This document shows, piece after piece, positions 871 through 10,605 of a stretch of 64,000 nt of DNA. Made by a program: the position numbers and the translations under genes. Below the pieces are notes generated by a model that made no database searches, was not told the DNA's origin, and worked only from the letters and a program-made list of their open reading frames with translations. This DNA is from Escherichia coli (GTDB taxonomy: Bacteria > Pseudomonadota > Gammaproteobacteria > Enterobacterales > Enterobacteriaceae), in NCBI RefSeq assembly GCF_003334765.1, contig NZ_QOWT01000002.1; one strand, given 5' to 3'. Within the stretch, counting starts at the first letter, position 1. Every line of letters starts with the position of its first letter.

Positions 871-2522
871 TGAAATCGGTACGTTACCTTATCGGCCTCT
901 TCGCGTTTATTGCCTGCTATTACCTGTTACCGATCAGCACGCGTCTGCTCTGGCAACCCGATGAAACGCGTTATGCGGAAATCAGTCGAGAAATGCTGGC
1001 ATCCGGCGACTGGATTGTGCCCCATCTGTTAGGGCTACGTTATTTCGAAAAACCCATTGCCGGATACTGGATTAACAGCATTGGGCAATGGCTATTTGGC
1101 GCGAATAACTTTGGTGTGCGGGCAGGCGTTATCTTTGCGACCCTGTTAACTGCCGCGCTGGTGACCTGGTTTACTCTGCGCTTATGGCGCGATAAACGTC
1201 TGGCTCTACTCGCCACAGTAATTTATCTCTCATTGTTTATTGTCTATGCCATCGGCACTTATGCCGTGCTCGATCCGTTTATTGCATTCTGGCTGGTGGC
1301 GGGAATGTGCAGCTTCTGGCTGGCAATGCAGGCACAGACGTGGAAAGGCAAAAGCGCAGGATTTTTACTGCTGGGAATCACCTGCGGCATGGGGGTGATG
1401 ACCAAAGGTTTTCTCGCCCTTGCCGTGCCGGTATTAAGCGTGCTGCCATGGGTAGCGACGCAAAAACGCTGGAAAGATCTCTTTATTTACGGCTGGCTGG
1501 CGGTTATCAGTTGCGTACTGACGGTTCTCCCTTGGGGACTGGCGATAGCGCAGCGGGAGCCTAACTTCTGGCACTATTTTTTCTGGGTTGAGCATATTCA
1601 ACGCTTTGCACTGGATGATGCCCAACATAGAGCTCCGTTCTGGTACTACGTGCCGGTCATCATTGCCGGTAGCCTGCCGTGGCTGGGATTACTCCCCGGT
1701 GCACTGTACACAGGCTGGAAAAACCGCAAGCATTCCGCAACCGTCTATTTGTTGAGCTGGACGATAATGCCGCTGCTGTTTTTCTCCGTCGCTAAAGGTA
1801 AATTGCCCACCTATATTCTTTCCTGCTTTGCATCTCTGGCAATGCTGATGGCGCATTACGCTTTGCTGGCAGCAAAAAATAATCCTCTGGCGCTGCGGAT
1901 TAATGGCTGGATTAACATCGCTTTTGGCGTCACTGGCATTATTGCCACATTTGTGGTCTCCCCGTGGGGACCAATGAACACGCCGGTGTGGCAAACCTTC
2001 GAGAGCTATAAAGTCTTTTGTGCCTGGTCGATTTTTTCGCTATGGGCATTTTTCGGCTGGTACACCTTAACAAACGTCGAAAAGACCTGGCCTTTTGCCG
2101 CGCTTTGCCCGCTGGGGCTGGCGTTGCTGGTAGGATTTTCAATTCCTGACAGAGTTATGGAAGGAAAACATCCGCAATTTTTTGTCGAGATGACACAAGA
2201 ATCACTTCAGCCAAGCCGCTATATTCTTACTGATAGCGTCGGTGTTGCCGCAGGTCTGGCATGGAGCCTGCAACGCGATGACATCATCATGTATCGCCAG
2301 ACAGGTGAGTTGAAATACGGCCTTAATTATCCGGATGCGAAAGGGAGATTTGTCAGCGGTGATGAGTTCGCAAACTGGCTTAATCAACATCGTCAGGAGG
2401 GGATTATTACTCTCGTGCTTTCGGTTGACCGCGATGAAGATATCAACAGTCTCGCCATTCCGCCCGCAGATGCCATCGATCGTCAGGAGCGTCTGGTGCT
2501 GATTCAGTATCGTCCCAAATGA
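870..2522 (+). CDS. arnT: ArnT, undecaprenyl-phosphate 4-amino-4-deoxy-L-arabinose transferase (lipid A modification)
   Basis: 550-aa ORF, strongly hydrophobic multi-pass membrane protein; start overlaps arnD stop; operon context. Confidence 0.95.
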
Positions 2523-2854
2523 TCTGGCTAACATTAGTCTTTGCCAGCTTGCTTAGCGTTGCCGGGCAGTTGTGTCAGAAACAGGCAACCTGCTTTGTGG
2601 CGATAAACAAACGGCGCAAACATATCGTGCTGTGGCTGGGACTGGCGCTGGCTTGTCTTGGTCTTGCCATGGTGCTCTGGCTGCTGGTCTTGCAGAACGT
2701 ACCGGTAGGCATTGCTTACCCGATGTTAAGTCTGAATTTTGTCTGGGTGACGCTGGCTGCAGTAAAACTGTGGCACGAACCGGTATCGCCGCGTCACTGG
2801 TGTGGGGTGGCGTTCATTATTGGCGGCATTGTGATCCTCGGGAGTACGGTGTAA
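2519..2854 (+). CDS. arnE: ArnE, small membrane flippase subunit for undecaprenyl-phosphate-L-Ara4N
   Basis: 111-aa hydrophobic ORF; ATG overlaps arnT stop (ATGA at 2519-2522). Confidence 0.92.
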
Positions 2855-3240
2855 TGGGCCTGATGTGGGGATTATTCAGCGTCATTATTGCCTCAGTTGC
2901 GCAATTAAGCCTGGGTTTTGCGGCGAGTCATCTGCCGCCGATGACGCACTTATGGGATTTTATCGCGGCTCTGTTAGCTTTTGGCCTGGATGCCCGGATA
3001 CTGTTACTCGGGCTGCTGGGTTATCTGCTTTCCGTTTTTTGTTGGTATAAAACGCTTCATAAACTTGCGCTAAGCAAAGCCTATGCCTTGCTCAGTATGA
3101 GTTATGTGCTGGTATGGATTGCTTCAATGGTACTTCCCGGCTGGGAAGGGACTTTTTCGCTGAAAGCACTACTGGGAGTAGCCTGTATTATGAGCGGGTT
3201 GATGCTGATTTTCCTGCCCACGACAAAACAACGTTACTGA
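2854..3240 (+). CDS. arnF: ArnF, small membrane flippase subunit
   Basis: 128-aa hydrophobic protein starting MGLMWGLF at the ATG overlapping arnE stop (TAATG at 2852-2856); the ORF track shows a longer same-frame ORF from 2572 that I reject. Confidence 0.88.
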
Positions 3241-7554: not shown

Positions 7555-9221
7555 AAATGGCTTACCTGCGCCAGAAGTTGCTGGAGCGTTTGCGCACCAT
7601 CGGTGTCGTTAACCACCATTTCAATCACCGTGGTGGTTGGCGTGCGCCAGGCGTCGGCAAATGCCGTTTCAAGTTCCTGCCAGTTTTGCGGACGATGATA
7701 TTTCAGCTCGAACATCGCGGCGGCGTGCTCAAAATGGACGTTTTGCGGCATCAGATAGAAACGCTCACGCTCGCTTTGCGGCGTTGGCAACAGCGAGAAA
7801 ATTTGCCCGCCGTTGTTGTTCACCACAATTAATACCAGCGGCGCAGAAACCTGACGCAATAACGCCAGCGCGTTGAGATCGTAAAGTGCGGAGAGATCGC
7901 CCACAATCGCCAGCGTCGGTTTGCCGCTTGCCCGCTGAACGCCGGCGGCGGTCGAAAGCAGCCCGTCGATACCGCTGGCCCCACGGTTGCTGTACACCGG
8001 GTAACCTGCCGGAAGTTGCGAAAGCGCATCAATCAGACGTACCACCAGGCTGTTACCAACAAACAATTGCCCCTGTTCAGGCAGATAGTCGCAGATGCGA
8101 TGCGCCAGTTGCGCTTCGCCAAACGCATCACGGCGGGCAATAACCGCCTGCATTGCCTGTTCCGCCAGGCGCGGGATTTCAACGCACCAGGGCTGGCGTT
8201 TTTCTGCCGGATGCAGCTCCAGCCAGTCGGCAATATTGGCAATTAAGCGACGTCCGCGATGGTGTGCCGGATCAAGTCGCCCTTCAATGTCATCAACAAT
8301 CCAGTACTCTTCTGGTTCACAGCTTGCCTGCCATTGCAGGAGCCGTTTCCCCGTCAGGCTGCTTCCCAGTTGCACCACAATTTGCGCCTGCTGCAGCTCG
8401 CTGGTCGCTTTGGCATTGCCTAACCAAAGATCGGCACACGGCAGCGGCTGCCCGGTTTGTGACAGCACATCGCCAATCAGCGGCCAGCCAAGAGTTTGCG
8501 CCCACAGGGCAACTTTTTTGCCCTCTTCCGCACTCATGCGCCCGGCAACCACCACGCCGCGCTTTTGTCGCCAGAAGAACCAGTCGCGCTGTTTTTCACT
8601 TTCCAGACGAGGCGCTTCACGCAGCCACGGTTTGTCGTCCTGCCACCAGTCACCCAGACGCTGTTGCCAGCTAAGCCCGGTATCGTCCATTTCGCCATAC
8701 AGCGGTTCAGCAAACGGGCAGTTGATATGGACTCCCCCCGCATGAAGCGTACCGAGAGCGTGGTCGATGGTAGAAACCAGCCAACGTGCGGGGATATCCT
8801 GGGTCGGGCGCGGCAATGAAATACTGTGCGTGGGGTGAGAGGCGAACATTCCCGGCTGGCGAATTGCCTGATTCGCGCCGCAGTCAATTAGCTCCGGCGG
8901 GCGATCGGCGGTTAAGAGAATCAGTTTTTCTCCGGTTAACCCGGCTTCAATCAGTGCTGGATAGAGATTTGCCACCGCCGTGCCGGAGGTCACAATCACC
9001 GCCACCGGCTGCTTGCTGACTTTCGCCAGCCCCAGCGCCAGATGCCCCAACCCACGCTCATCGAAATGGGTGTGGTGAATGAATGCGGAATTCTCCGCCG
9101 CCGCTAACGTTAACGGTGTAGAACGCGAGCCTGGGGCGATACAGATGTGTCTGACGCCGTGACGCGTTAATGCTTCCAGAATGACCGCCGCCCAGCGTCG
9201 GTTAAATGCGCTTACTGACAT
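7551..9221 (-). CDS. menD: MenD, SEPHCHC synthase (ThDP-dependent)
   Basis: 556-aa protein starting [10 protein letters not shown]; ThDP motif [12 protein letters not shown]...NNNGG present; the ORF track extends the frame 117 codons further upstream (to 9572), which I treat as non-coding. Confidence 0.9.
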
Positions 9222-9309
9222 GAGTTTGTCCGGTATCAATATTGCGGCTAAGTATAAGGAGCTACAAAAATAGATTATTGATATGAATCGGTAATGATGC
9301 GACTCATTA

Positions 9310-10605
9310 CTATTCCATTTGTAATAAAGTACGCAGCCCTGCCGCTTTGTTGTCGATTTCCTGCCACTCTTGCTCGGGGTCGGAACCACGGACAATGCCC
9401 GCGCCAGCATATAATCGCACGACATTGCCGCTAATTTTTGCTGAGCGCAGGGAAACGCAGAATTCGCTTTGTTGTAATGAGAGATAGCCCGCAGAACCGG
9501 CGTACCATTCTCGGGTGAACGGTTCGTGACGGGCGATAAACTGTCGCGCCAGATCGCGCGGTAAGCCAGCAACTGCTGCCGTTGGCTGCAACTGATGTAA
9601 ACAGATCACATCATCCGCTTTGTTGAGTGAAGTCCAGATACAGCGGCGAAGATGCTGCACTTTACGCAGACGCAGTACCTGCGGCGGTAAAACATCCAGC
9701 GTCTGGGTATCGGCCTGTAATCGTTGACAGATATCTTCCACCACCAGCATGTTCTCGCGCTGGTTTTTATCATCCGCCATCAGCCACTCTCCTAACTGCT
9801 GCGCCTGCTTATCATCAGGATTATTTGCTACTGTTCCCGCCAGCGCTTCAGTACGCAGCGCTTTGTCACGCCGCCGCCATAACCGTTCCGGTGAAGAGCC
9901 AAGAAAAGCATTTTCGCCATCAAAGGCCATGTAAAAATGGTAGCAATTCAGATTCAGTCGACGACTGGCAGCCATCATCGCCGCCGCGTTGACCGGACTT
10001 GCGAAATGCAGGTCAGTTGCCCGAGCGAGCACCACTTTGTCGAGCTCACCTTCGGCGATGGTTTTCGTTGCCAGTTCGATTAATTGCGTCCAGCCCGTTT
10101 TGTCCGGCCAGTGTTGTTCTCGCGTGGTGGTTAAATGTAACCCAGGCAAGGGCTTGATACTCACCAGTGTGGCGATAAATTCTTTTGCCTGAATCGCATC
10201 GTGCTGAAGGGAGCTTTCGCTGAATAGCGTCAGCCGCAGCGTGGCTTTACCGCCACAGCGTCGCCATTCCAGGCGGGGTAAAAGTAAATTGCCCTGCGAC
10301 GGGTCAAAAGCATTCAGCCCCCAAATGCGTAAGTCGGCGTGTTCCGGGTGCTGGCGAAGAAAACGTTGTGCCTGGTCCAACGACGTAAAACGGGTAATCG
10401 CGCCCAGGACGACAGCTTCTTCATCACCATTACGTTGTTGCCAGTAGAATTGCGGGTATGTTTGCTGACTGGCCAGCCAGCTCAAGGCATCAAAAGCGTC
10501 TTTGAGAGGGAAAGGAATATCGATAACCCGAATGCCGGGTGTCGCCGGAATCTCTTGCGACAAATGGCGCAGTAGATTTTCCAGCGCCGTAGTAAGTGAT
10601 TGCAC
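9310..10605 (-). CDS. menF: MenF, isochorismate synthase (menaquinone-specific)
   Basis: 431-aa chorismate-binding enzyme; GTG start codon; first gene of the men cluster. Confidence 0.93.

Follow-up and report, generated by a model that had tools for sequence, protein, structure and literature searches.

The closest described counterpart of the long open frame at menD is the longest-ORF start miscall: a stop-free, in-frame run ahead of a well-supported start codon, called as coding by some gene callers, that is unconserved and has no ribosome-binding site (RBS). The frame upstream of menD in Escherichia coli shares these properties, and differs in that the run is unusually long (128 codons), crossing the 3' end of the preceding gene, menF, in the +1 frame and then an 88-nt spacer that contains no stop. 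A second counterpart is the class of alternative N-terminal proteoforms described in E. coli by Ribo-RET and N-terminomics, which menD recalls in having in-frame NTG codons upstream of its start. In contrast to such proteoforms, the menD candidates have no N-terminomics signal, no conservation and no Shine-Dalgarno (SD) sequence, and a putative internal promoter lies downstream of them. The spacer itself resembles class II FNR-activated promoters, in which the activator site is near -41.5 and the -35 element is weak or absent: it carries xxGAT-N4-ATCAA, TATACT and no -35 match, published FNR and sigma70 ChIP peaks are located at menD, and menDBCE is FNR-dependent in Shigella. It differs from these promoters in its imperfect left half-site and in a second FNR-like block downstream of the -10 box; moreover, no FNR-dependent change in expression was seen in E. 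coli (PMC3688515).

Our analysis indicates that the 117-codon extension of the menD frame is almost certainly a chance stop-free stretch and not part of MenD, that the spacer is kept as promoter-region DNA or RNA, and that MenD starts at ATG 9221. The evidence used here comes from this analysis or from published data: an open frame that is lost in relatives, the pattern of selection, the experimental N-terminus, and occupancy by FNR and sigma70. Nothing supports a longer MenD, and the extension is already handled correctly in the reference annotation.

The window is the whole 64,000-nt (64-kb) stretch of E. coli DNA that was analysed, and the features of the locus are collected in Table 1. The menF-menD region is identical to the sequence of E. 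coli K-12 MG1655; with an identity of at least 95%, it was found in 5,421 of the 5,426 complete genomes of E. coli. The initial annotation had taken 9221 as the accepted start of the 556-aa MenD, which agrees with the RefSeq annotation, and had described the menD frame as open to 9572. Re-derivation gave the same frame: on the minus strand, 128 stop-free codons precede ATG 9221 and the upstream stop is TGA 9608-9606. The first ATG, GTG or TTG past this stop is TTG 9572, which adds 117 codons and makes a 673-aa ORF; the other in-frame starts are ATG 9425, ATG 9410, TTG 9395, GTG 9389 and TTG 9239. The overlap with the menF 3' end in a different frame was borne out as well, the menD frame being the +1 frame relative to menF. 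The extension overlaps menF from 9310 to 9572 and then spans the spacer (9222-9309), and the sequence from 9310 to 9608 is menF and nothing else.

Table 1. Features of the menF-menD locus, in window coordinates.
Feature	Coordinates	Strand	Remarks
menD CDS, 556 aa	7551..9221	-	RefSeq annotation; ATG at 9221
menF-menD intergenic spacer, 88 nt	9222..9309	-	conserved non-coding regulatory region, taken as menD promoter and 5' UTR
In-frame open extension, 117 codons from TTG 9572 to the menD ATG	9222..9572	-	not coding
Near-invariant block TTGATACCGGACAA	9226..9239	-	holds weak GGA Shine-Dalgarno (9229-9231); at least 95% conserved in 75 species
TATACT, -10-like hexamer	9251..9256	-	conserved in 75 species; no recognisable -35
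FNR-like site CCGATTCATATCAA	9278..9291	-	2 mismatches to TTGAT-N4-ATCAA; conserved in 75 species
menF CDS, 431 aa	9310..10605	-	RefSeq annotation; last 88 codons read by the extension in the +1 frame
Remaining stop-free run (11 codons) and bounding stop TGA 9608-9606	9573..9608	-	

Comparison of the menF-menD locus from 80 Enterobacteriaceae species distinguished the annotated start from the frame upstream of it. An ATG followed by MSVS(A/S)FNRRW was present at the annotated menD position in 80 of 80 species. The conservation of the extension in other Enterobacteria, which the initial annotation had proposed as a check, was absent: in most genera an in-frame stop closes the frame 6-45 codons upstream of menD. 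The stop lies 6 codons upstream in Salmonella, 9 in Klebsiella and Raoultella, 31 in Escherichia albertii and 32-44 in Enterobacter; in Citrobacter the distance is mostly 9-29 codons, with 73 in one strain. Stops in close relatives, which had been named as evidence against an extension, were thus found both in E. albertii and at 6-29 codons in Salmonella, Klebsiella and Citrobacter. Upstream runs of at least 109 codons were confined to three lineages of Escherichia and to two of the nine Kluyvera. All sampled E. coli (five divergent genomes and K-12) keep the frame open for all 128 codons, and it is also open in two sister Escherichia lineages; E. albertii and one divergent lineage have stops in it. 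The spacer measures 47, 71, 73, 76-80, 82-85, 87-89, 103 or 219 nt in different species, and all three phases of menD relative to menF occur among the genera while the sequence blocks of the spacer are kept regardless. No reading frame is kept across the spacer, and a coding extension could not tolerate such variation.

The two exceptional Kluyvera, K. georgiana and K. intermedia, have in-frame runs of 183 and 159 codons, longer than that of E. coli; in seven others of the genus the frame is closed after 9-92 codons. The two long runs are independent, sporadic cases of the same chance phenomenon.

The initial annotation had regarded the extension as long for a random frame in DNA of 50% GC, and this argument was not supported. 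Of the 45 genes annotated completely within the window's first 50 kb, menD does have the longest upstream open run (128 codons), followed by arnF with 99 and the others with 39 or fewer. Stop-free windows of 99 codons make up 1.1% of the +1 frame of the annotated genes in the window. Same-strand off-frame runs within the 54 long ORFs of the 64-kb window reach 179, 168, 126 and 117 codons in the +1 frame and 126 and 122 codons in the +2 frame. When the last 99 residues of MenF were re-encoded with synonymous codons at local codon usage, the +1 frame contained 1.3 stops on average and the probability of no stop was 0.23. The comparison with a random frame at 50% GC therefore overstates the rarity of the run, because the C-terminal sequence of MenF by itself yields few stops in the +1 frame. 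Shuffling of the 88 nt of the spacer gave a probability of 0.16 for no stop in the extension frame. The joint probability that the MenF tail and the spacer are both stop-free is about 0.04 for menD, which is noticeable, yet unremarkable when about 60 genes are scanned for oddities. The length of an off-frame run should accordingly be judged against the sequence of the overlapped protein (0.23 here) and not against random DNA of 50% GC. The caveat already attached to the extension, that it may be chance, was the correct reading.

The pattern of substitution agrees with a single coding frame in the overlap. When the final 100 codons of menF were compared across species, 1413 differences from the E. 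coli sequence fell on first, 939 on second and 4239 on third codon positions of menF; these third positions, where changes concentrate, are the second positions of the extension frame. Amino-acid identity averaged 80% when read in the menF frame and 39% when read in that of the extension. In E. coli and in its sister lineages, substitutions nearly always altered the peptide of the extension frame: 9, 8, 28 and 43 nucleotide changes gave 8, 7, 27 and 39 amino-acid changes. In the four more divergent relatives, menF-synonymous change per codon was 0.23-0.38 in the overlap, 0.34-0.41 in the rest of menF and 0.21-0.31 in menD. The overlapped segment is thus about 30% below the rest of menF, which could reflect weak extra constraint, though it equals the level of menD. 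Because synonymous divergence in the overlap equals that of menD, there is no dual-coding signature, and the strong suppression of synonymous change that dual coding predicts was not seen in these four relatives. From these sequence comparisons, the extension appears to be under no amino-acid constraint. A codon-usage score gave -0.05 log2 odds per codon for the extension frame and +0.13 for the menF frame; it separated the frames poorly and was not used as evidence.

Protein data place the N-terminus of MenD at the annotated start. All crystal structures of E. coli MenD are of the 556-aa protein, which begins at residue 118 of the long ORF, and the MenD chains of Bacillus, Listeria, Staphylococcus and Mycobacterium in the PDB align only from residue 127-134 onwards. 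A search of 5.8 billion proteins with the 117-residue extension peptide gave 10 matches, all of them short fragments and mostly frameshifted pieces of MenF. N-terminal proteomics, which the initial annotation had suggested for menD, is available in published form and supports the annotated start: TRAINSPOTTER N-terminomics (PMC13245402, Table S1, row 482) lists menD (b2264) at the database start (ATG), with the peptide SVSAFNR, residues 2-8 of the 556-aa proteoform. This peptide is preceded by Met rather than by Lys or Arg, so that its N-terminal end is non-tryptic, as expected if the initiator Met is removed after initiation at 9221. No alternative-start row for menD is present in the same table, and the menD row gives no Ribo-RET evidence in either direction (PMC13245402). 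N-terminomics shows the main N-terminus and could let a rare longer species escape. The calculated energy of the anti-Shine-Dalgarno duplex was +1.3 to -3.2 kcal/mol for the upstream candidate starts and -3.2 kcal/mol for the annotated ATG, the median of the neighbouring annotated genes being -5.4 kcal/mol. The annotated ATG has a weak SD only (GGA), and none of the upstream in-frame candidates pairs better than it does.

These data bear on the possibility that a minor, lineage-restricted MenD with an extended N-terminus (612-673 aa) is made from TTG 9572, ATG 9425, ATG 9410 or GTG 9389 on transcripts reading through from the menF promoter. In its favour, every sampled E. coli and the two sister Escherichia lineages have the frame open, in-frame ATGs are present, and some GenBank records annotate forms of 673, 624 and 619 aa. 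Against this, the peptide is unconserved even within Escherichia, the candidate starts have no SD, the N-terminome shows the annotated start only, and a longer protein would place about 60-117 residues without homologues ahead of the N-domain of a ThDP enzyme. The long forms themselves are few: exact 673-, 624- and 619-aa forms were found on 2, 9 and 3 GenBank contigs, versus at least 1000 for the 556-aa form, as fits longest-ORF calling. Examples of long forms are AKK15721.2 and EGI11920.1; AFG41203.1 is a 619-aa entry identical to K-12, and the same cluster contains a related entry of 619 aa, ABF04446.1 from Shigella flexneri 8401. Forms of 612 and 562 aa were absent from 15 billion database proteins. 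The 673-, 624- and 619-aa MenD entries are longest-ORF miscalls, and we regard an extended MenD as very unlikely.

A different product would arise if a programmed +1 frameshift near the end of menF joined MenF to MenD, much as men modules are fused in plant PHYLLO. A single-base shift does join the two ORFs, and public assemblies contain ORFs of 1013-1017 aa (P0012-P0016) in which MenF residues 1-342 are joined to the whole 673-aa frame. Each of these is made by a single-base frameshift near window position 9575-9580 and is found on one or two contigs; they have the appearance of indels or sequencing errors, and sequencing errors or rare mutants are their probable source. Such a fusion would also lose the last ~89 residues of the chorismate-binding domain and gain 117 unconserved residues, and the frame is closed in nearly all relatives. 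Neither a frameshift-prone motif nor a stimulatory structure was found, with nothing from Rfam and a spacer-region folding z-score of -1.8. The probability of a programmed fusion is practically negligible. Taking all such products together, the chance that any extended or fused protein is both made and functional is very small; a young Escherichia-restricted extended MenD, or a rare +1-frameshift MenF-MenD fusion, produced at a low level from menF read-through and having some function, has a slim chance at best. The long menD frame is better known as a documented gene-caller trap, which has given rise to the 673-, 624- and 619-aa entries and, through indels, to the apparent fusions of 1013-1017 aa.

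The spacer is the only biologically interesting part of the interval. It bears on the tie between menaquinone synthesis and anaerobiosis, which is largely already known. Four of five relatives of the Escherichia lineage, including E. albertii, have 0 substitutions in 88 nt and the fifth has 1, while 21-41% of the flanking synonymous sites differ in the four more divergent of these five. Three blocks show at least 95% conservation in 75 species, even though indels occur between them: CGAyTCATATCAA (9278-9291), TATACT and TTGATACCGGACAA. This invariance raises the question of whether the last 29 codons of the extension are held by constraint on a protein, for example a short extension starting at TTG 9239, which lies within the near-invariant TTGATACCGGACAA. 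The invariance, however, covers would-be synonymous positions too, which indicates constraint at the level of nucleic acid. In Citrobacter amalonaticus S646 one base fewer separates the block from the ATG, so that the TTG is no longer in frame. We rejected TTG 9239 as a 6-codon extension of MenD on this frame break, the SVSAFNR peptide, the missing 562-aa form and the lack of an SD, and we consider protein-level constraint on the spacer exceedingly improbable.

Conservation of the spacer as nucleic acid is consistent with a promoter region for menD. TATACT follows the FNR-like site at a distance of 21 nt, no -35 hexamer intervenes, and a scan with the sigma70 consensus gave no -35/-10 pair on the men strand. 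The missing pair fits an activator-dependent promoter and provides no independent support for one. Matches to the FNR consensus with two mismatches are common, with 54 in the 64-kb window, so that the sequence match is weak evidence alone. Published occupancy data add to it: in the FNR study of Myers 2013 (PMC3688515), Table S5 gives an FNR ChIP-seq peak labelled menD with its centre at 2377346 (U00096.2), which was detected by three ChIP-seq peak callers and by ChIP-chip and has a PatSer PWM ln(p) of -9.36. The same study reports a sigma70 ChIP peak, also labelled menD, at 2377297 (PMC3688515). Its Table S9 records no FNR-dependent change in menD expression in E. coli (PMC3688515). In Shigella flexneri, RNA-seq showed that menD, menB and menC (reported as menDBCE) were induced anaerobically and reduced in an fnr mutant, and that menF was not (PMC4229854). 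The menD start in U00096.3 is 2379259 (PMC13245402). In the window, the FNR-like site is centred at 9284.5. We take the offset between U00096.2 and U00096.3 to be 1975-1978 bp, which would put the FNR peak at about 9283-9286 and thus on the site.

If the A at 9243, 8 nt past TATACT, is the first transcribed base, the centre of the FNR-like site is at -41.5. We infer both the start at about 9243 and the class II geometry of the promoter. Neither a menD entry nor matching coordinates occurred in the Cappable-seq supplement or in that on Shigella M90T TSSs. In the proposed arrangement, the menD promoter region would consist of an FNR-like site centred about 41.5 nt upstream of the start, a TATACT -10 element, a short 5' UTR and a weak GGA RBS. 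The block TTGATACCGGACAA would then be +4 to +17 of the menD-specific mRNA, GGA included. With the promoter inside the spacer, menD-specific transcripts could not carry any upstream candidate start codon. MenD is made from ATG 9221 and, after removal of the initiator Met, has Ser2 at its N-terminus. The distal three quarters of the open extension are the menF 3' end read in the +1 frame, where the MenF C-terminal sequence happens to give few stops, and the proximal 88 nt are the spacer, conserved as DNA or RNA for the menD promoter region and not for amino acids.

The block TTGATACCGGACAA, 14 nt long, is itself two mismatches from the FNR consensus and is situated past the -10 box, within the presumed 5' UTR. 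On read-through RNA it can pair with UAUCAAUA (9279-9286). It may act as an operator or a UTR element, or may simply be RBS context. RNA folding of 9200-9320 placed a UAUCAAUA/UAUUGAUA stem in the MFE structure, with a modest z-score of -1.8, and 11 of 200 shuffled sequences folded equally well; the paired cores of the stem are invariant across species, so that covariation is uninformative. An Rfam scan of 9000-9800 at a permissive E-value gave one chance hit to a snoRNA model (E = 0.81) and no known RNA element.

Several minor observations were made on the spacer and its surroundings. Immediately after menF, a 10-codon mini-ORF in the region of window positions 9296-9305 (TAGTAATG) has an ATG that overlaps the TAA following the menF TAG stop. 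We dropped this candidate, as indels in Citrobacter, Salmonella and Klebsiella alter its frame and length and it is unconserved outside Escherichia. The spacer of 219 nt belongs to C. amalonaticus S646 (positions 2282-2500 of locus L015), in which an element of ~135 nt lies between the TATACT and TTGATACCGGACAA blocks. It has the terminal inverted repeats GGAGCCTGTCCCATCAGGC ... GCCTGATGGGTCAGGCTC and resembles a miniature inverted-repeat insertion.

An enterobacterial menF-menD locus is present on contig CACSKA010000019.1, which is labelled Chryseobacterium sp. 18061. The MenD encoded there is 88% identical to that of E. coli, and the spacer is almost the same as in "Citrobacter sp. 18056", a record of the same study; contamination or mislabelling is probable. 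In E. coli MS20659 (NZ_CP082073.1; positions 1820-3153 of locus L087), IS30 is inserted between the menF 3' end and menD. There menF is annotated as slightly shorter (1275 nt), and the spacer is disrupted and menD is cut off from the menF transcript. Despite the insertion, menD of MS20659 is annotated as an intact 556-aa protein.
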